Below, piece after piece: positions 10,598 to 61,937 of a DNA stretch of 64,000 nt (position 1 is its first letter; the number at the start of each line of letters is the position of its first letter). A model generated the notes under the pieces. That model saw only the letters and a list, made by a program, of their open reading frames with translations. It did no database searches and was not told the DNA's origin. The translations under genes and the position numbers were made by a program. Source of the DNA: Fidelibacterota bacterium (GTDB lineage: Bacteria; Fidelibacterota; UBA8477; JABMPR01); the NCBI GenBank assembly GCA_034716895.1, contig JAYEKW010000062.1, positions 17,885 to 81,884 on the forward strand, given 5' to 3'.

Positions 10598-11266
10598 ATG
10601 AAACTATGGAAAAAAATGAGGGGTGGAGCTGCAGCTGTTGCAGCGCTGACGAAAACACAGGTCGAGGTTTCTGAAGTAAGCCAACTTCAGGCTGAAGTAG
10701 ATGAGTTACGGGCAGCTATTGGTGTAACATTTACTGGTCTGGGGAGCGCATATTATGACTATGCCAGCGAAAGTAAGGTGGAGGGGATTCCCAACGAAAT
10801 TGATGAACAGCTCAAGCTTTTATTTGACATGCATCATAAGTTGGCAGAGAAAGAACAACAACTCGCCGGAATAAAAGCAGAATATGAGGAACAGACCTTA
10901 TCATTGAGTCACTTTCGTGAATTCAAGGAGGCTCTTGATGAGGCGGGGGGCTCGATTGAATACGTCACCGTTGAGGAATCATCTCCCTTTTTGTACAGGA
11001 CCGTCAGTGAGATGGGATTCCCAGAGGATATTCTGGCTGGCATGATCATACGCATGGGCAACGCTTTGATTCCAGGGGGGGATACTCGCATCGAAGTAAA
11101 CGATAAAATTGTTCTCCTGGGCAAGAAGGAAGCTGTCGTCGGGCTACTGCATAAATTTAAAAGTGAAGGGGAACAGGAAATTGTTCCCGCCAAGAATGAT
11201 GAAAAAGATAAACCTACACCATCAACAAAGCCTGGCACAAAAAAAGCAACAGCAAAAAAGAGGTAG
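10598..11266 (+). CDS. Coiled-coil protein with a C-terminal TrkA-C (RCK_C) domain
   Basis: 222 aa. The C-terminal FLYRTVSEMGFPEDILAGMIIRMGNALIPGGDTRIEVNDKIVLLGKKEAV is a typical TrkA-C fold. It has an N-terminal coiled coil and a basic tail. Confidence 0.6.
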   Translation: MKLWKKMRGGAAAVAALTKTQVEVSEVSQLQAEVDELRAAIGVTFTGLGSAYYDYASESKVEGIPNEIDEQLKLLFDMHHKLAEKEQQLAGIKAEYEEQTLSLSHFREFKEALDEAGGSIEYVTVEESSPFLYRTVSEMGFPEDILAGMIIRMGNALIPGGDTRIEVNDKIVLLGKKEAVVGLLHKFKSEGEQEIVPAKNDEKDKPTPSTKPGTKKATAKKR

Positions 11267-11365
11267 AGGCAAAAACAGAAGGAATGAAAGCAGATGCTAA
11301 ATCTGAGTATCTAAAATAATTAGCTACTTTAAAAGATGGAAGAAAAGATCTTCAAAGCAAGTATG

Positions 11366-11513
11366 ACGCCACCGCAAAAAGTTCCTTACGGTTGGAAAAT
11401 CATGCAATATGCACGTACATCAATAATAATAACCAGATAGTATAATATTGACTATGTCTATAAATACCAATACTATGCGACCTCGCGGTTAGACTTTTTG
11501 CGAGGCCGTCAAT
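11366..11513 (-). repeat. MITE-like element, copy C (diverged, minus orientation)
   Basis: ccaccgcaaaaagttccttacggttggaaaatcatgcaatatgc matches the reverse complement of the 3' end of copies A and B. The far end (agactttttgcgaggccgtcaat) matches the rc of the 5' TIR. Confidence 0.7.
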
Positions 11514-11612
11514 ATTTGCCTTGTTATCGAAAAAAATCCCCGCGACTTTTTGCACATCTCATGCTTAACATAAGACTGGTTTAATTCAAGAAAGAGCACT
11601 AAATATCATTCG

Positions 11613-14448: not shown

Positions 14449-14613
14449 CAACGTAAGTAGCCCGTATATTTTATAAAGCAGTACTCTTTGACTTGTTATT
14501 CCAATTTCTGACTGCTTATGTCGGAATAAATCGGTCTTCAACGGTCATACCGTCCGTTTTCGGTTAATGGTAAAGCCAAACAAATCTAGAACAAAATTAA
14601 ATTACACAACTAT

Positions 14614-14849
14614 GATGGTCTCGCAAAAAGTACCTCTCGCCCGCCTGCGTATAACTTCGTGCGGGCAGGCAGAGCACGCAGAGCGTTGTATTGAGCCCTT
14701 CGGTTAAGCTCAGGAACCACCTGTCGAAATAGTGCAGAGTATTGATATTAATGGATATAGAAGTATTTGCGTTATGTGGTAAAGATTAAATGAGTTAGGG
14801 CGTATTTGATGATTTTTCAACCGTAAGGAACTTTTTGCGGTTTCGTCAA
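14614..14849 (+). repeat. MITE-like intergenic element, copy A (with a ~55-bp internal insertion relative to copy B)
   Basis: Near-identical to 17941-18121 apart from the extra block cgttgtattgagcccttcggttaagctcaggaaccacctgtcgaaatagtg. The termini tctcgcaaaaagtacc / ggaactttttgcggtttcg form terminal inverted repeats. Confidence 0.85.
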
Positions 14850-17166: not shown

Positions 17167-17940
17167 ATGAAGAGACTAAACAATGATATAGACCTGCGTA
17201 AATTTTATAAAAAGCTGGATTCGGATGGCCCAAAATTGCTCTTCTTGGATTATGATGGAACATTGGCACCTTTCTGCGATGACCCACAGTTGGCCTATCC
17301 ATATCCAGGTATAAAAAGTATGCTTGATGCAATCATCAGTAATCCCACAGTACGGCTAGTTATTATCACGGGAAGGTCTATTAGCGAACTGCAAGCTTTA
17401 CTTGACCTGAAACAGGATGTAGAGATATGGGGCACCCACGGTCATGAGCACCTGCTCCCCAATGGAGACTATTCCTTGGTTGATCTTAGCCCGAATCAAA
17501 ACATGGGTTTAAGCTTGGGTGTTGATGCGGCTTTGTCTGTAGAGCCTTTGCTCAGGGTAGAAGAGAAACCTGGTGCGGTTGCTTTTCATTGGCGAACTAT
17601 TCAAGCCAAAGATGTTGAGAGATTTCAAAACCAATTAACAATGAAACTTGAAAATATTTCCCAGCATCACGAGTTGGTACTTAAGAAATTTGATGGGGGG
17701 CTGGAGCTTATCTCACCAACAATGGACAAAGGTAGGGCTGTTCGAGAAGTGCTGCGAGAAGTAACCCCAAATACGACAGTGGCTTACCTTGGAGATGATC
17801 TTACGGATGAGGATGCTTTCTGGGAACTAAAATATAAAGGACTGACAGTACTTGTTAGAGATGAATTGCGTGAAACACAGGCGAACCTCTGGATACAACC
17901 ACCTGACGAGCTTCTTCAGTTTTTAGAAAAATGGAAATAG
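17167..17940 (+). CDS. otsB: Trehalose-6-phosphate phosphatase (HAD family)
   Basis: LLFLDYDGTLAPF (HAD motif I), LVIITGRS, and YLGDDLTDEDAF (motif III). 257 aa. Confidence 0.85.
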   Translation: MKRLNNDIDLRKFYKKLDSDGPKLLFLDYDGTLAPFCDDPQLAYPYPGIKSMLDAIISNPTVRLVIITGRSISELQALLDLKQDVEIWGTHGHEHLLPNGDYSLVDLSPNQNMGLSLGVDAALSVEPLLRVEEKPGAVAFHWRTIQAKDVERFQNQLTMKLENISQHHELVLKKFDGGLELISPTMDKGRAVREVLREVTPNTTVAYLGDDLTDEDAFWELKYKGLTVLVRDELRETQANLWIQPPDELLQFLEKWK

Positions 17941-18121
17941 GATGGTCTCGCAAAAAGTACCTCTCGCCCGCCTGCGTATAACTTCGTGCGGGCAGGCAGA
18001 GCACGCAGAGGCGCAGAGTATTGATATTTATGGATTTAGGGGTATTTGCGTTATGTGGTTAATATTAAATGGGTTAGGGCGTATTTGATGATTTTTAAAT
18101 TACTTTTTGCGGTTTCGTCAA
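17941..18121 (+). repeat. MITE-like intergenic element, copy B, inserted between otsB and otsA
   Basis: Begins at the base after the otsB stop codon. 181 bp, with the same TIRs as copy A. Confidence 0.85.
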
Positions 18122-18167
18122 ATAGAAGAAACTGAACGAAAAATTATCCAAGAGGTAAGCAAAAAAA

Positions 18168-20471: not shown

Positions 20472-21031
20472 GAGCATGAGTAACATCTGTATCAAATAAA
20501 AGTATGTTCATTTAACAACAATCTGAGAATATACCGGACCATAGATCAAGACAGATTAGCATAGCTGCAATTAATAATAATGGTTCATCATAATAATGCG
20601 TACCTGGATACAATCATTAAGATTGGGGGTCAATAAAATATTCTGGGGTACAAAGGTATAAGGGTTATAAAGACTGTGTGAGAATAGGGCAACTCTTACC
20701 CCATGCTTCAGCTTGGGGTTTAACCGACCACAAGAAATTCGGGGGGGGCTATAGCCCAACTGTGTAGCTGATTAATCTTGGGCTAAAGCCCTTTTTTGTG
20801 TGGATTCTAGATCCCCAAGCTGCATTTCGATAAACTCAATAACCAGCATAGGGTAATTGATAAGTTATTGTTATTCATGTCATTGCATAAGCTCAGTGTA
20901 TCATAATCGTTGTAACTGACTCAAATACAGGTGATTACAGATTTTCGTGAGAAACTTCTGTTGTTAATGTCCCTCCCGTTGGCGAGGAGTATACAAACCG
21001 TAAGAGTCCAAGAAAAATTAATATAGTAATA

Positions 21032-26249: not shown

Positions 26250-26465
26250 AAAGGAGTCTGATTCCACCTGGCAGATTATAAGGAGAATTTAGGGATATAG
26301 TTCATTATGTTTTTTTGCCATACATAATGGTAAGAAAATTAGCACTAAAAGGGCGAGGATATACAATCTTGACGAAACCGCTAGAAGTATCTGAAAATTC
26401 ATGAAATGTGCCCTAAAACCATTAAATACAACCACATATAGTGAATGCTCCTAATCCATATATAT

Positions 26466-26560
26466 CAACACTTTGCGTCATTTCGATGAACTCAATACAA
26501 CGCTCTGCGCGCTCTGCGCCCTGCGAGAGGGACTTTTTGCGAAGGCGTCAATCTTAAAAG
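26466..26560 (-). repeat. Partial MITE-like element (5' portion, minus orientation)
   Basis: The rc reads attgacgccttcgcaaaaagtccctctcgcagggcgcagagcgcgcagagcgttgtattgag, collinear with the 5' end of copy A but lacking its internal hairpin. Confidence 0.65.
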
Positions 26561-28110: not shown

Positions 28111-28183
<73 letters not shown>

Positions 28184-34837: not shown

Positions 34838-36232
34838 ATGCTTAGGTCTGAAATTGACAATTCAATCAATAAATTAATTAGGTCTATTGAAGAGTGTGAG
34901 CTGGTTGAGGTCTTCACTGCAATTTTGGAGAATGAGGGCGAGACGAATCCAACAGTTGCGCTTCATTCTTTTAGCAAATTTCTGGAAATAACCCAGTCGT
35001 ATAATGCCTTTGAGCATAAGCTGTTAAAGATGTTTGAGTTGGAAAAGCTCAAAGATACTGCCTTTTGGGCAGCAATATTAAAACCGGACGGCCAGGATCT
35101 TAAGCGGGATATTGAAAAAGTTTGTGCTTCGATCAGATTTACGCTTGATTACCTCCCAAAAGTCCTCTCGCTAACTGGAGAGAATTTAGAAAAGATCACA
35201 TCAACAGCAGTAGAAGAGGGTAAAAAAAGTGGACTGCAATACGTAAGGTTATCGGTTGTGGTGATCGAGGAACAGGAGCTTTCATCACCCAAACGTCTAA
35301 TATTGATGTTAGAAGCGATTCAGGGACTATACGAAGTTGTGGGGCGAATTAAGAATTTGCCAGTGCGTGATCTGATTGTCACAGCATGTGATTCAGGTAA
35401 TGACAAAAAGTTTGATTTTCTAGGATCATCTGAGGCTATTGAGGGCGTAAAAGCCATCATTCTCAGTTTATGGGATGGCATCATGTTCTACAGAGATGAC
35501 AAGACGGGCAAACAAATCGAACTTATTGCTCAATCATTGCCAGTATTAGATGAGATCAATGATCTGGAAAAGACTGGCGCTTTTGGGCAGGAAGAAGCAG
35601 AGATTCTTAGACGGCGGACAATTCTATCTGTAAATAAGTTTTCACAAGCAGGAGTAACCATTCCTGAGATGGAGGATTTTACCAGATATGACCCGCGGGA
35701 GCTAATGCGTCCTGATCAAAAAATCTTGACAGCATCCAGTGAACTTGAGACATCTTCTGAACAGGAGAAATTCGCTGAACAAGTCGAGTCACCCGAACCT
35801 GCAGCGCGTGTTGAGTCGGATGGATTCGCTGAGCAAGTTGATCAACCTGAACCGGTTGCATCTGTCAAACCTGAGGAGTCAGTTGAATTAGATGACTTTA
35901 CCGCACCTGCCGCTCCGACTCAGCCAGAGCAATCACTTGAATTGGTGGACTTCACTGAATCGGATGAAACCGATGAGTTAGTGGATTTTGCCAAGCCTGA
36001 GACATCGGCTCAATCGGATGAAGCAGCTGAGTTGGTGGACTTCACTGAACCTGCTGATTCTCCCGAGCAGGAAGAAGCAACTGAATCAGATGATTCTCCT
36101 GAATCCACACCAGAATCAACCAAAGAAAAACAGTCCATTGCCCCAGTGGAAAGTGACTCTGATGAGGATAGTATCTTTAAGCGTATGGCTGCAGGCTATT
36201 TAGAGGCAAATCGCAAGACAACAAAAAAGTAG
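34838..36232 (+). CDS. Hypothetical protein with an acidic C-terminal tandem-repeat region
   Basis: 464 aa. The C-terminus carries ~4 imperfect repeats of ...E(L)VDFTEP..(S)DE.... Confidence 0.5.
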   Translation: MLRSEIDNSINKLIRSIEECELVEVFTAILENEGETNPTVALHSFSKFLEITQSYNAFEHKLLKMFELEKLKDTAFWAAILKPDGQDLKRDIEKVCASIRFTLDYLPKVLSLTGENLEKITSTAVEEGKKSGLQYVRLSVVVIEEQELSSPKRLILMLEAIQGLYEVVGRIKNLPVRDLIVTACDSGNDKKFDFLGSSEAIEGVKAIILSLWDGIMFYRDDKTGKQIELIAQSLPVLDEINDLEKTGAFGQEEAEILRRRTILSVNKFSQAGVTIPEMEDFTRYDPRELMRPDQKILTASSELETSSEQEKFAEQVESPEPAARVESDGFAEQVDQPEPVASVKPEESVELDDFTAPAAPTQPEQSLELVDFTESDETDELVDFAKPETSAQSDEAAELVDFTEPADSPEQEEATESDDSPESTPESTKEKQSIAPVESDSDEDSIFKRMAAGYLEANRKTTKK

Positions 36233-41877: not shown

Positions 41878-43122
41878 ATGACCAAAAAGAAAATAATTAT
41901 AATCGTTGTTGCAGTGGTCCTCCTGGGAGTCATTGGATATTTTGCAGTCAATAAGGAAAAAGGAAGCAGCAAGGATGTTCAGGCAGCCAGGGTTGAAAGA
42001 GGAGAGGTTGTCCACAAGGTAGCTGCCTCTGGTAAGATTCAACCTGTGGTAGAGGTTGCTGTTAGTGCCGATGTTGCTGGTCGCGTAATTAAAATGGCGG
42101 TTAAAGAAGGTGACTGGGTCAAAAAAGGACAATTCCTGGCACAACTGGATGCGACTCGTTACAAAGCAGATGTCGATCGGGCTGAACAAGTGCAGGCATC
42201 GGCTGATGCATCGCTTTCCCTGGCAGCCCTGGAAAAAAATCAACAATATAAACTTTATCAAAAGCAGATGGTGAGTGAGCTGATCTTTCAAAGCGCTATG
42301 GTTCGTTACCAACAAGCCCTGTCATCTACAAAACAAGCCCAGGCCGCTCTGACTCAATCGCGTGATAATTATAATAAAACCATAATGTTTGCTCCTATGT
42401 CAGGTACGGTAACACTGGTCAACAAGGAAGTTGGGGAGATGGCTCTGGGGTCAGCATTCAGTCGTGATATCATTATGGTTATTGCGGATCTAAACGATAT
42501 GGAAGTATTAGTTGATGTCAACGAGAATGATGTTGTTGATGTGACTCTAGGAGATACCACTGAGATCGAAATAGATGCTTTACAGGACACCATGTTTACG
42601 GGGATTGTCACTGAGATAGCCCATAGTGCCCAAAACAGTAATCTGGGGAGCCTGGACCAAGTAACCAATTTTAAAGTACATATCCGCTTAATGGATCCGC
42701 CCGATGAAATACGTCCCGGAATGTCTGCTGCAGTGGATATTCGGACGAATGTTCAACGGGATGTCTTATTTGTGCCTATTCAAAGTGTAACCATGCGGAA
42801 ACCACGGCAACTTGAAGAAAAACAGGATAAAGAGTTAAGCCGGGCGGATAGCAGCATGGATAATGAGGATGAAGACCTTGACCCAGTTGAGGTTGTATTT
42901 GTGATAGTGGATAATGAGAAGGGTAAGGGTCAGAAAGTCGAACAACGGGAGATCATCACTGGAATCATAGGTGAGCGTGATTTTGAGATCATCTCTGGTT
43001 TGGAGCTTGATGACCAGATCATTACCGGACCGTATAAACAAATCAGTCGTGGTCTCAATGATGGTGATAAGGTAAAGATAACCAAGCGGAAGAAGTTTAA
43101 TGCAGGGAAAGAAGAAAAATAG
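41878..43122 (+). CDS. macA: Efflux membrane-fusion (periplasmic adaptor) protein, MacA/HlyD family
   Basis: N-terminal TM, coiled-coil hairpin, lipoyl and beta-barrel regions (GKIQPVVEVAVSADVAGRV, LDATRY...), and a MacA-type C-terminus. Confidence 0.8.
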   Translation: MTKKKIIIIVVAVVLLGVIGYFAVNKEKGSSKDVQAARVERGEVVHKVAASGKIQPVVEVAVSADVAGRVIKMAVKEGDWVKKGQFLAQLDATRYKADVDRAEQVQASADASLSLAALEKNQQYKLYQKQMVSELIFQSAMVRYQQALSSTKQAQAALTQSRDNYNKTIMFAPMSGTVTLVNKEVGEMALGSAFSRDIIMVIADLNDMEVLVDVNENDVVDVTLGDTTEIEIDALQDTMFTGIVTEIAHSAQNSNLGSLDQVTNFKVHIRLMDPPDEIRPGMSAAVDIRTNVQRDVLFVPIQSVTMRKPRQLEEKQDKELSRADSSMDNEDEDLDPVEVVFVIVDNEKGKGQKVEQREIITGIIGERDFEIISGLELDDQIITGPYKQISRGLNDGDKVKITKRKKFNAGKEEK

Positions 43123-43138
43123 AATTCAGAATTCAGAA
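43121..43138. repeat. Left inverted repeat AGAATTCAGAATTCAGAA of the four-helix-bundle cassette
   Basis: Perfect 18-bp inverse complement of 43565-43582. Confidence 0.85.
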
Positions 43139-43152
43139 GACAGTAGACGAGA

Positions 43153-43503
43153 ATGCTGACTCCAGCAAGAAAATTTGAAGATTTACTGGTTTGGCAAAAA
43201 GCTCATGCGTTTGTACTATCAATCTATACCTTGTCCAAAACTTTTCCAAAAACAGAACAATTTGGTCTTACCAGTCAGTTTCGCCGAGCTGCAGTTTCAG
43301 TTCCTGCAAACATTGCAGAGGGCTGGAAGCGTAAAGGGAAAGCGGATAAGAAGCGGTTTTATAATATTGCACAGGCCTCCCTCGAAGAATGCCGTTACTA
43401 TCTATTACTCACTCATGACTTGGGATATGGTGAAACTGAAAATGCAAATTCACTTTGTATAGAAGTTTCAAAACTGCTCACTTCATATAACAGTAAAATC
43501 TGA
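43153..43503 (+). CDS. Four-helix-bundle protein (23S rRNA intervening-sequence protein family)
   Basis: 116 aa. FEDLLVWQKAHAFVLSIYTLSKTFPKTEQFGLTSQFRRAAVSVPANIAEGW...IAQASLEECRYYLLL is diagnostic of the family. It is inserted between macA and macB. Confidence 0.85.
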   Translation: MLTPARKFEDLLVWQKAHAFVLSIYTLSKTFPKTEQFGLTSQFRRAAVSVPANIAEGWKRKGKADKKRFYNIAQASLEECRYYLLLTHDLGYGETENANSLCIEVSKLLTSYNSKI

Positions 43504-43564
43504 TAAAATGACGATGATTAAAAAAACGATAAATGATTCTGACAAGAATTCTAACTACTGGATT

Positions 43565-43582
43565 CTGAATTCTGAATTCTTA
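43565..43582. repeat. Right inverted repeat TTCTGAATTCTGAATTCT of the four-helix-bundle cassette
   Basis: Perfect inverse complement of 43121-43138. Extra GAATTC/TTCTGA motifs lie at 43537-43560. Confidence 0.85.
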
Positions 43583-45510: not shown

Positions 45511-45534
45511 AACAACAGTTATTACTATTTCTAC

Positions 45535-45563
45535 TTGCCACAAAGGCACAAAGACACGAAGCG
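45535..45563. repeat. Left inverted repeat of the GxxExxY cassette
   Basis: tgccacaaaggcacaaagacacgaag is the perfect 26-bp inverse complement of 46090-46115. Confidence 0.85.
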
Positions 45564-45606
45564 AATTAAGTAGATATTGTTGAAGTAGAGGTAGTTTATC
45601 AACGCG

Positions 45607-46020
45607 TTGGCATACAAAGGATTTCACGAGAGATATGAATCTCTTACAGAAAGAGAAGAGTCTATAGCAGAACAAATTGTAGATGCTGCTTTTACTGTTC
45701 ATAAAAGATTAGGACCAGGGTTACTAGAAAATATTTATGAAGTTTGCTTCTGCTATGAGCTGGAAAAACGTGGTTTGATAATCAAAAGGCAAGTAAATAT
45801 TCCAATCAAATATGATGGATTGGTATTTGATAAAGGACTACGTCTAGATGTCTTGGTCGATGACTTGATAATTTGCGAATTGAAGGCTGTTGACAAAATG
45901 AATCCAGTATGGAAGGCTCAAATTCTCAGCCACCTAAGAATGTTAAATAAAAGACTGGGGTTCTTGATAAATTTCAATGTTCCAACCATAAAAAATGGTA
46001 TCAAAAGAATTATTTTGTAA
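45607..46020 (+). CDS. GxxExxY protein (PD-(D/E)XK nuclease-fold family)
   Basis: 137 aa. Has the GPGLLENIYEVCFCYEL (GxxExxY) motif. It is inserted between two permease genes. Confidence 0.85.
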   Translation: MAYKGFHERYESLTEREESIAEQIVDAAFTVHKRLGPGLLENIYEVCFCYELEKRGLIIKRQVNIPIKYDGLVFDKGLRLDVLVDDLIICELKAVDKMNPVWKAQILSHLRMLNKRLGFLINFNVPTIKNGIKRIIL

Positions 46021-46087
46021 GGATTCGAAAGTGTTCATAGACATAGCCAACCAAGAGCCTATCCGTTGTTCAATTACTTTTATTAAA

Positions 46088-46116
46088 ACTTCGTGTCTTT
46101 GTGCCTTTGTGGCAGG
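46088..46116. repeat. Right inverted repeat of the GxxExxY cassette
   Basis: cttcgtgtctttgtgcctttgtggca is the inverse complement of 45537-45562. It lies ~30 bp upstream of the next permease start. Confidence 0.85.
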
Positions 46117-46137
46117 TAAAACAACTGACAAAAAGGG

Positions 46138-49222: not shown

Positions 49223-49398
49223 TCATAACATGTACACCCCCCCAACACAATGAGGAAAAGTACTATCTGGAGGCTGAGCACAGTCGAAGCCCTGGTTCAT
49301 ATCGTACATGGGGATTAGACATTTCGATGAACTCAATGTCCTTGATCTACAAGTGACCCTGCGCAAAGCCTGAAATTCAGGGACAATCAAATCTTGTC

Positions 49399-52304: not shown

Positions 52305-52827
52305 ACACTCTCCTTTAAAGCTTTATTAATTGCCACAAAGACACCAAGTCACAAAGACGCATATTGGGAAGCCATTGCGTGGTTTAGTATTTTCAAGATA
52401 GTTTGGTATCTATGCACTCATATAGGATCCAAAATAGGGTTAAAGTGAAAAATAGCCACATTAGATTTTGGAAAAGTCATGCAAACAGCCAATTGCTTGC
52501 TTCGCAAGAATTCATATGATGCAAGACATCTCTCCCCTCCAAGAGAGATACCCACAGAGGAGGGGGGGTTCAAAAGTCCAACATTTTGATTTCAGCCCTC
52601 AAAACATCGATGAGTGAGAATAATATCAGAATTCTCAGGATGAAAATAATCCCTCCAATCACATCAAACTGGTTTAATATTTGCTTCGAGCAATCATGAA
52701 TAATCCACATCAGTTAGCTAAATGGTAAATTGATGCAGTGAGTTCACACTTGAAATTTGGACTGGGAAGTTGTTATTTATCCCGTGTTTGATCAACTTAG
52801 CCTTAACCATAGATTGGAGCTAGTATC

Positions 52828-56551: not shown

Positions 56552-58513
56552 TTACTGTAAATATACCATCTTAATCACATCACTTAACCTGCCAGCTGTG
56601 AATCTGGCAAAGTACACACCAGTACTGACCTGGAGATTGGCGTTGTTCAAGCCGTTCCACCTCACGGTGTGCTGACCAGCAGATCTATCAGCTTTCAGAA
56701 GATTCTTTACCACGTGACCCTGGACATCATAGATAATGATTGATACATCAGCGCTTTCCAGTAGATCATACTTGATCGTAGTGGTCGGGTTAAATGGATT
56801 TGGGAAAGCTGGATATAGTTTGACCTGCTGTGGTTGAACAGGAGACTCATCAATACTCACGATCGCTAGATTTTCATAATAATTAAAGGTGCCGTCGTAG
56901 TTTCCAATAGCCAGGTCCAGATCCCCATCACCGTTCAGATCCACCAGAGCTGGTGTGGCATTTTGACTGGCAGTTAACCCGGCAACCTCATCTGGATACT
57001 CTACCCAACTACCGCTTTCATAACTAAAGAATTGAATTTCATGAAACAGATCACCTGTGATCATATCTAAATTACGATCCAGATTTACATCACCCAAAGT
57101 CAGGATCGCATTACTGCCCACATCGAAACCGCTGAACAGACCGAGGTTTTCAGTCCATTGGGCATCAGCGGCCGTACCAGTGTTTTCAAAATAGGATATG
57201 CCGCCATCTTCCCGGCCAATGAACAGATCCAGATCATGGTCAAGATCAAAATCATATAACCGGGGACTGGACCATCCACCAGCATTGATCCCGGAGAACA
57301 TCCCGGACTGGTAGCTAAACCCGTTCTCAGTATTATGATGATAGTAAAGGTTACCACTGAGATCACCCACAACCAGATCGATCAGACCATCATCATCCAG
57401 ATCACCGGCAGCAACAGCTGAATAAATGGAATGATCAATACTGCTAAAGATACTGTGATCGGCGCTCCAGGCTGGTCCGTACATATTACCAGTATTTTCA
57501 AAGTATTTTAGGTCACCCATCTGACTACCACTGACCAGGTCCAGGTCTCCGTCCCCATCAAAATCAATGAATACGGGATTACTGGCACCACCCACATCCA
57601 GGACCCCGCCAAATAGCGAGGTGACGGCTGTCCAACTGGCTGAGCTATTGGTACCGCTATTTTCGTAGTATTGCAGTGGACCTGAAGCAGATCCATGCAC
57701 CAGATCAGGCTTGCCATCTCCGGTGAGATCGACCAGGCAGGGAGAGTTCCAATAAGTGGTTTGACCCACACTGGAAAACTGCGTGCTGGCATCACTCCAG
57801 TTCCAATTCGATTCATCACCATCGTTACGATAATAATAAAAACCATAGCCATCCCGACCAACAAGCAGATCAGTATCTCCGTCAGAATCCAGGTCAGAGA
57901 ACCAGGGATAAGCGTACAAGCCAACATCGAACCAGGTTTCAGACTCACTCTCCAGGAAAATGGCACTCTCTGACGTTCCCAAGTTTTGGTAATAGCGCAC
58001 ATTGCCGCTTTCACTGTAGCCAACCACCAGGTCATTGTCTCCATCATTGTCCAAATCAGCAAAATGGGGGACGGGGTTGGTGCCCACACTGAGATCGACG
58101 AAAAAATCATCAATTCGAACAAAATCTCCATTTACTGCATCACCGATATTGTCATAGAGTTGGAGCCCGGTAAACCCACCAGAAATAAAATCCAGGTCAC
58201 CATCTGCATCCAGATCGATACACACACCCACCTCACAGTCCAGCTCCTCAACCTCAGCAAACAGGTCTGCACCAGGTTGAAAATGAGGGCTGCTTGCTGA
58301 TCCAGTATTTTCAAAATAGCGGGGTGCAGCACTGATACTCCCCAGGATCAGGTCCTGATCACCATCACCATCCAAATCAGCAAAACGCGGTTGTGAGAAT
58401 GGCAGGGACGGAATGCCACTGGGGTTAAAGATATTATCATTCTGTTGCCACATCTGGGCATATCCCAGACTTGTTAAAAGCAAGGTGCTGATCAGATATT
58501 TAATAAATGGCAT
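56552..58513 (-). CDS. FG-GAP/VCBS repeat beta-propeller protein with a T9SS-type C-terminal sorting domain
   Basis: Has a signal peptide and many DLDGDGDQDL / DLDNDGDNDL FG-GAP Ca-binding repeats. The last ~80 aa (...GVYFARFTAGRLSDVIKMVYLQ) resemble a Por-secretion CTD. Confidence 0.7.
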   Translation of the reverse strand: MPFIKYLISTLLLTSLGYAQMWQQNDNIFNPSGIPSLPFSQPRFADLDGDGDQDLILGSISAAPRYFENTGSASSPHFQPGADLFAEVEELDCEVGVCIDLDADGDLDFISGGFTGLQLYDNIGDAVNGDFVRIDDFFVDLSVGTNPVPHFADLDNDGDNDLVVGYSESGNVRYYQNLGTSESAIFLESESETWFDVGLYAYPWFSDLDSDGDTDLLVGRDGYGFYYYRNDGDESNWNWSDASTQFSSVGQTTYWNSPCLVDLTGDGKPDLVHGSASGPLQYYENSGTNSSASWTAVTSLFGGVLDVGGASNPVFIDFDGDGDLDLVSGSQMGDLKYFENTGNMYGPAWSADHSIFSSIDHSIYSAVAAGDLDDDGLIDLVVGDLSGNLYYHHNTENGFSYQSGMFSGINAGGWSSPRLYDFDLDHDLDLFIGREDGGISYFENTGTAADAQWTENLGLFSGFDVGSNAILTLGDVNLDRNLDMITGDLFHEIQFFSYESGSWVEYPDEVAGLTASQNATPALVDLNGDGDLDLAIGNYDGTFNYYENLAIVSIDESPVQPQQVKLYPAFPNPFNPTTTIKYDLLESADVSIIIYDVQGHVVKNLLKADRSAGQHTVRWNGLNNANLQVSTGVYFARFTAGRLSDVIKMVYLQ

Positions 58514-61454: not shown

Positions 61455-61937
61455 TATTTCATTTGACTACAAATTATTGAAAAGAACAAACGCCCATTAA
61501 TCAAGGTCCTGATGTGTGAAAAGCTATTCTGAGTCCCAAGTTGGTATTCTATCAATTGGTCTTTAAAACACGCACTTTGCGTCTTCGAGAGAGTGTAACG
61601 AACGTGGCGATCTCCAAATATCAATTGCATTTCCAAAGTGCACGATAAATTCAAGGGATCACCCTACACTTTGCAAGTTACGGGAGACAAGGTTTTTCCA
61701 GCAACGAATAGAACACGCACTTCGAAGTGAAATTGGCATTGTCGTTCCCCTCAGTTTTATCCGCGAAAATCTGCGAATATCTACGGCTAAAATGAAAGGG
61801 CTTGAAACACCTGCAAAAATGGTTTGAAAAAATTTGCAGTATTGAATTGGCAGCCACTTTACAATAGATTAATCGTCTTAAACAAAGAATGAAATCCGGT
61901 CTCAAATTGGGTAGACCATAAGCTCGTTAGGGGAATT

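Follow-up and report, generated by a model that had tools for sequence, protein, structure and literature searches.

The spacer between a TrkA_C gene and a patatin gene in the window (the whole 64,000-nt stretch of DNA analysed here) contains an old insertion of a repeated element, which is very probably a non-coding, non-autonomous DNA transposon (MITE) of approximately 141 to 236 nt. The MITE label is based on terminal inverted repeats, a family-level 4-bp duplication, multi-copy dispersal and lack of coding capacity. Judged as Correia, RUP and ERIC (PMC2229807) and MITEAba12 (PMC6382973) were, the element is a MITE of known type, an ordinary genomic parasite, and it differs from these examples in sequence, host, end structure and duplication length. 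A profile was built from 19 aligned full copies and run by nhmmer with filters off on the window and all loci. Exactly four members were found in the window at 17941-18120 (+), 26550-26370 (-), 14613-14848 (+) and 11511-11364 (-), and each match spans essentially the whole 151-position model. The initial annotation had put the family at five or more members in the window, all of them intergenic: the number is reduced to four, and the intergenic location is confirmed for all four. The copies, the terminal repeats of copy C and the family end sequence are listed below.

11364 to 11511, minus strand: copy C, complete 148-nt minimal-form MITE, the most diverged member, both terminal repeats intact
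11364 to 11382, minus strand: right terminal inverted repeat of copy C, ACTTTTTGCGGTGGCGTCA in element orientation (TGACGCCACCGCAAAAAGT on the plus strand)
11493 to 11511, minus strand: left terminal inverted repeat of copy C, TGACGGCCTCGCAAAAAGT in element orientation
14613 to 14848, plus strand: copy A, 236 nt, with a GC-rich hairpin module (GCCCGC..GCGGGC), an expanded ATTGAG..TCGAAAT module and the 9-nt CCGTAAGGA indel
17940 to 18120, plus strand: copy B, 181 nt, between the otsB stop codon and otsA
26370 to 26550, minus strand: copy D, complete copy of 181 nt, containing the 18-nt ATTGAGTTCATCGAAATG module
MITE family end sequence, longer form: TGACGNNNNCGCAAAAAGT

Copy C was recovered by the profile over model positions 1-151 of 151 (11511-11364, minus strand, E=8e-25, 83.9 bits, nhmmer --max). 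It shows 58-70% identity to every other copy, in good agreement with the earlier description of a third, diverged copy in opposite orientation to A and B. The 44-mer quoted at that time as a match to the reverse complement of the 3' end is found at 11369-11412, inside a 76-nt inverted repeat between 11364-11439 and 14773-14848 (the 3' end of copy A) that is 76% complementary by repeat finder. The same program also paired 11473-11516 with 26512-26555. The far end of copy C (11493-11511) is indeed the other terminal repeat, and it is able to pair with GCGAGGTCGCA located about 13 nt further inside the element. The interior was correctly described as diverged and AT-richer: its GC content is 34.5%, compared with 39.2% for the entire copy and 43.1% for the window. 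Also as described, copy C lies downstream of the TrkA_C gene (10598-11266), at a distance of 97 nt; the patatin gene follows about 101-116 nt away and both neighbours are on the same strand. The flanking 4-mers are ATAT and TACT in element orientation (agta/atat on the plus strand) and match at one of four positions, so that the transpositional origin of copy C rests on its family membership. The 9-nt indel CCGTAAGGA is common to copies C, A and L003. Copy C therefore probably belongs to their lineage, although it is much older, and its great age fits the lost duplication and the lower GC content. As a minimal form it is not truncated. It was concluded that copy C is an old minimal-form insertion in which the terminal repeats were kept and the duplication and the interior decayed. 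Most likely it now does nothing beyond filling the TrkA_C-patatin spacer.

Ends, modules and target duplication

All copies end in TGACGnnnnCGCAAAAAGT ... ACTTTTTGCGnnnnCGTCA, and the 22 that were aligned, copy C among them, all have this feature. At both ends of each copy there is a bipartite terminal inverted repeat of 19-20 nt which consists of TGACG, a 4-nt variable spacer and then CGCAAAAAGT. Some 25 nt in from the left end there is a second CGCAAAGTG-like motif. In its minimal form the element measures about 150 nt. The left part of this form reads, in order, tip TGACG, the 4-nt variable spacer, CGCAAAAAGTCCCTCTC, GCAGAGnnCGCAGAG and ACGCARAGTGTTGATAWTTA; the right part has a variable centre, TAGGG..ATT..ATG, ACTTTTTGCG, a spacer and CGTCA. 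Element length is 141-236 nt across the family and 148-236 nt in the window. Within the window, length varies because some copies have discrete optional modules placed between left end and core, and because of the 9-nt indel that precedes the right repeat. No truncated copy was found among the window members, and the suggestion that partial copies stop at an internal hairpin did not hold up. The segment 26466-26560, previously taken for a 5' half only, is part of the complete copy D. Six-frame translation detected no coding capacity, with no conserved ORF, no conserved ATG and no frame staying open beyond the element.

The inserts of the longer copies are at fixed positions. A GC-rich hairpin insert sits after CCCTCTCGC, as GCCCGC..GCGGGC in A, B, L003 and L013 and as GCCAG..CTGGC in L002 and L004; a second hairpin, GCCTGC..GCAGGC, is found in L004 and L015. 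A 24-nt module, ATTGAG-N4-TCGAAATGA, is present in D, L008, L013, L016 and L022 and itself expanded in A. The hairpin modules are missing from the minimal form, which is the commonest one. In A/B, L002, L003, L004, L012, L013 and L015 the optional GC-rich hairpins occupy the same two sites within the element; their stems differ, and an ACTTCG/CTTCG motif is common to the loops. Such hairpins could be either mini-insertions nested in the element or a stem that varies.

For the duplication test the ends were fixed at TGAC..GTCA and the flanks were compared at k = 2, 3, 4, 5, 6 and 8. In the first set, the 4-nt flanks were identical in 10 of 17 copies and only k = 4 was enriched. The larger set gave a perfect 4-bp duplication in 12 of 23 copies and at least three of four matching positions in 20 of 23, as compared to a mean of 1.1 and a maximum of 7 perfect cases in 5000 shuffled flank pairings. 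Duplications of 2, 3, 5, 6 or 8 bp showed no enrichment. A TA dinucleotide duplication (Correia/RUP type or IS630-type) was also rejected, with one perfect 2-bp case vs 2.8 expected. The duplicated 4-mers are AT-rich and specific to each site (AGAT, AATT, TAAT, ATTT, TGAT, ATAA, TTAT, TATT, AATA and AGTT). In the window, copy B has a perfect AATA duplication (17936-17939 and 18121-18124), copy D has a perfect AGAT duplication (atct on the plus strand at 26366-26369 and 26551-26554), and the flanks of copy A (ACTA and ACTT) match at three of four positions.

Each of the 25 copies examined is placed between ORFs; where a copy and an ORF overlap, as happens in a few cases, this stems from mechanical extension of ORFs to upstream starts. 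Three copies abut a stop codon. Insertion can occur at or beside stop codons inside operons, as seen for copy B between otsB and otsA. The first base of copy B is G where the family has T, and this G completes the otsB TAG stop codon. The canonical T would give TAT, and otsB would then run about 27 codons into the element; the same T-to-G change takes away the terminal TG of copy B. Judged from these bases, the G suggests a post-insertion substitution that restored the otsB stop and may have immobilised copy B. In two other loci (L008 850-1060 and L015 790-1010) the insertions are within short low-complexity AT-rich direct repeats (ttttcaattttcaattt and aattattaattattaat), which suggests a preference for low-complexity AT-rich spacer DNA. 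The L015 site fits a 5-bp duplication (ATTAT) better than a 4-bp one.

Subfamilies and distribution

A search with a 19-base left-end pattern in one genome per species found 22 loci, 21 of which belong to four MAGs (JAUVKO01, JAOZSM01, JAJRSW01 and JAYEFL01); the label is Candidatus Neomarinimicrobiota for three of them and Bacteroidota for the fourth. For the window patatin protein, a counterpart with 100% identity is present in a 'Candidatus Marinimicrobia bacterium' MAG. The profile found two to three copies in single 8-kb loci and more than 25 copies in the fetched loci from four MAGs and one metagenome contig. A metagenome scan added one further family member, L032 (40% GC). Copies in CSMAG_482 are 99% identical, and GMC6 has two subfamilies with 80-94% identity. 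Copies A, B and L003 share 89-91% identity and copy D clusters with L032, L005 and L020 at 78-82%; between subfamilies the identity is 60-80%. The family is present in at least four Marinimicrobia-type MAGs, in intergenic DNA and in both orientations. Each genome has its own recently amplified subfamilies, and 99% identity between copies demonstrates recent transposase activity in these uncultured lineages. The species-specific subfamilies could serve as a strain marker. One apparent left end of a longer element (L010 5062-5138) turned out to be a truncated copy that gives way to ordinary intergenic sequence and genes of the host.

Many pattern matches are within about 150 nt of a contig end. 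A contig of an independent Logan assembly (L036, run SRR26901924), with sequence identical to the window, extends from 14820, inside copy A, to 17970, inside copy B. It breaks inside both copies, as expected where a repeat breaks the assembly graph. The ends of two other window-identical Logan contigs from this run, L034 and L035, are at window positions 61662 and 3697. The elements explain where contigs of Marinimicrobia-type MAGs break, and they are also a source of short, spurious ORFs whose C-terminal peptides read, for example, DFLRDRQ or TFCETVK. The value of the family is mainly practical, for annotation, and the understanding of how MITEs work is unchanged. In the literature we found nothing on MITEs in Marinimicrobia or on this end sequence. 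Conserved MITEs were surveyed in 2024 in the RefSeq repository, with the aim of leaving out putatively contaminated MAGs (PMC11602168).

Short motifs and alternative readings

Two segments previously assigned to the family were not recovered by the sensitive profile search that recovered copy C, and the profile was blank at both at E<=10. The supposed extra terminal repeat fragment at 11543-11560 shares with the element only the 10-mer GACTTTTTGC (11544..11553, plus strand); alignment of 11512-11612 with copy C scores 20, within the range of shuffles, which reach 27-33. This 10-mer occurs four times in the window vs 0.2 expected, in copies C and D, in one coding gene and at 11544. A weak likeness of 11583-11611 to the right part of the element was rejected as well, with a score of 24 that equals the shuffle maximum and with an order and orientation unfit for one element. 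By inspection, this stretch resembles the patatin upstream sequence of relatives that do not have the element. The other segment, 49300-49380, has in common with the family only the 18-nt motif ATTGAGTTCATCGAAATG (49320..49337, minus strand), and the likeness stops where the motif stops.

A second solo copy of this motif is located at 20823-20840 (minus strand) with one mismatch. Aligned with copy D, the solo sites match for 18-19 nt and then stop, and they score 31-36 against a shuffle maximum of 24-26. With up to three mismatches allowed, four sites were found in the window vs 0.15 expected by chance. The motif is half-palindromic (ATTGAGTT(C/T)ATCGAAATG, i.e., CATTTCGAnnnnCTCAATG). It stands alone in two intergenic regions of the window, one of them between the divergent proS and an LPP20-like gene; it is also present in copy D (26479-26496) and, split by an insert, in copy A (14690-14730). 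In MITE copies of other MAGs (L008, L013, L016 and L022) it is an optional module. On this sequence comparison, the 18-nt motif is a real but separate short sequence which is also an optional module in some copies. Possibly it is bound by a protein, or it represents a very small nested element. Since some internal blocks are kept across species and the 18-nt module is found outside the element, parts of the element may have a role at host level.

In metagenome contigs of 54-66% GC, the left end of the family, TGACGGnnTCGCAAAAAGTCCCTC, recurs in three short elements, opposite a right end that can be recognised as its partner (GACTTnTTGCG...TCA); their interiors are unrelated and carry long GC-rich hairpins:

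L028, minus strand, from reverse-complement offset 751: short element of 145 nt
L029, 2520 to 2726: short element of 207 nt
L030, 2077 to 2179: short element of 103 nt

These ends indicate that the end class is wider than the Marinimicrobia family. That the bipartite end TGACGG-N2-TCGCAAAAAGTCCCTC is an uncatalogued cross-phylum transposon-end class, and that the Marinimicrobia elements are possibly carriers of small host-relevant modules (e.g., the 18-nt motif CATTTCGAnnnnCTCAATG or the GC-rich hairpins with the ACTTCG loop), is a reading we consider unlikely. If it were true, the element would spread a regulator's binding site.

Other repeats were observed in the window. A 23S_rRNA_IVP gene (four-helix-bundle, bAvd-like; 43153-43503) lies between 26-nt arms that are 92% complementary (43121-43580), and a PDDEXK_3 nuclease-fold gene (45607-46020) lies between 33-nt arms that are 94% complementary (45529-46121). 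Both genes sit in an HlyD / ABC ATPase / FtsX-permease operon, the arms are near-perfect low-complexity inverted repeats, and the two small genes have the appearance of single-gene cassettes that were inserted. An arm sequence of similar type, GGCACnAAGnCACnAAG, is found again at 52327-52356 and beside a MITE in L005. An in-frame tandem repeat with a 54-nt period (35757-36053) is present in a 464-aa ORF (34838-36232) with no Pfam match. Repeated FG-GAP units (56912-58390) are present in a 653-aa secreted protein (56552-58513, minus strand) with a Por_Secre_tail domain.

After arriving as a MITE, copy C could have been co-opted, either as a terminator for the TrkA_C gene or to serve the patatin gene as promoter or operator. 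Such a role would account for its intact ends beside a decayed remainder. Copy C fills the spacer between two same-strand genes, and weak sigma-70-like hexamer matches are found inside it on both strands. However, these promoter-like matches reach only 9/12 (four found vs 1.7 expected) and there is no terminator-like site within copy C. Where relatives carry this patatin gene, its upstream region is free of the element, and by inspection the patatin-proximal block that the locus has in common with them appears to be outside the element. In the nearest relatives of the locus (66-79% amino acid identity of the patatin protein) no copy is present and the spacers are unalignable. We regard co-option of copy C as improbable.

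That selection maintains the whole family as an immobile host repeat with a cis-regulatory or structured-RNA function (operator, promoter, terminator or small-RNA module) is, in our view, quite improbable. The core blocks GTGTTGATAWTTA and TAGGG..ATT..ATG do persist across subfamilies at 60-80% identity, copies are often just upstream of gene starts, and the left end is self-folding: it pairs with its own subterminal inverted copy (TGACGGTCTCGC with GCAGAGATCGCA) in 85% of cells, compared with 28-61% when the partner is slid. Covariation at this hairpin, however, is not above shuffles (65-376 of 500 shuffles reach the same level), and the hairpin therefore counts as a conserved inverted repeat, from which a selected fold does not follow. 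The RNAalifold consensus of 22 copies shows end-to-end pairing only (14 pairs) and no interior helix. Rfam 15 gave no family match at the gathering threshold, nor at E<=1 around copies C and A; the only Rfam match in the window is a tRNA at 28111-28183. Among 13 copies with plus-strand ORFs on both sides, five are oriented with the genes and eight against, with no clear bias. A 4-bp duplication of unrelated target at each site is unexpected for a static site.

An element of the palindrome-associated REP/REPIN or IS200/IS605 type, which a Y1 (HUH) transposase and not a DDE enzyme would move in single-stranded form, would be in keeping with the GC-rich hairpins near the left end of some copies (GCCCGC..GCGGGC, GCCAG..CTGGC and GCCTGC..GCAGGC) and with the subterminal inverted copy of the tip within the left end, but the hairpins are optional and the terminal inverted repeats and the duplication are statistically clear, which makes this reading very improbable. 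Like those elements, the family consists of short intergenic repeats with GC-rich hairpins in some copies; REP/REPIN and IS200/IS605 elements are not known to have terminal inverted repeats or to make a target duplication.

Candidate mobilising enzymes and comparison with known systems

The sequences show the outcome of cut-and-insert transposition: ends tipped by TG..CA, a 4-bp stagger, and 4 bp of AT-rich target duplicated at insertion. With the element read as a MITE, a transposase encoded elsewhere would bind the CGCAAAAAGT part of the ends, cleave at the TG..CA tips and insert the element with a 4-bp staggered cut. The TG-ended families with 4-bp duplications are IS3 (IS407, IS150, IS3 and IS51 groups), IS21 and IS481. 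By analogy, the TG..CA ends together with the 4-bp duplication suggest a DDE transposase of the IS3, IS21 or IS481 type. No autonomous parent IS with matching ends was detected in the window, the 36 fetched loci, plasmids, phages or viral contigs. Solo ends were sought in the 36 loci and the window and led to no parent. Plasmids searched with the 47-nt left end gave chance-level matches only, plasmids and phages searched with whole copy D gave no match, and the end pattern had no match in viral contigs.

IS3, IS21 and IS481 are elements of 1-2.6 kb that encode DDE transposases. They have 5'-TG..CA-3' ends and short duplications that include 4 bp (3-5 bp or 4-8 bp), and IS21-type ends carry repeated subterminal binding motifs. 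The element described here resembles them in its TGAC..GTCA ends, its 4-bp duplication and its second CGCAAAGTG-like subterminal motif. It differs in that no transposase gene or full-length element with these ends was seen; the likeness is a lead on the enzyme and not a membership.

Among described MITEs, MITEAba12 of Acinetobacter/Moraxellaceae is 113 bp long, with 16-bp repeats, 9-bp duplications and ISAba12 as the proposed parent (PMC6382973). It was identified by the same features: small size, imperfect terminal repeats, a core without coding sequence and duplication on insertion (PMC6382973). The element here differs from it in the 4-bp duplication, in the bipartite 19-20-nt repeats and in that no parent was found. 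The Correia/NEMIS (Neisseria), RUP (S. pneumoniae) and ERIC/IRU families have 5'-TA-3' at their termini (PMC2229807). With these families the element shares a size of about 100-200 bp, the lack of coding sequence, terminal inverted repeats, a target duplication, a multi-copy and mostly intergenic distribution and end-to-end folding. Unlike them, it has TGAC..GTCA ends and a duplication of 4 bp rather than 2 bp, and its sequence and host phylum are unrelated to theirs.
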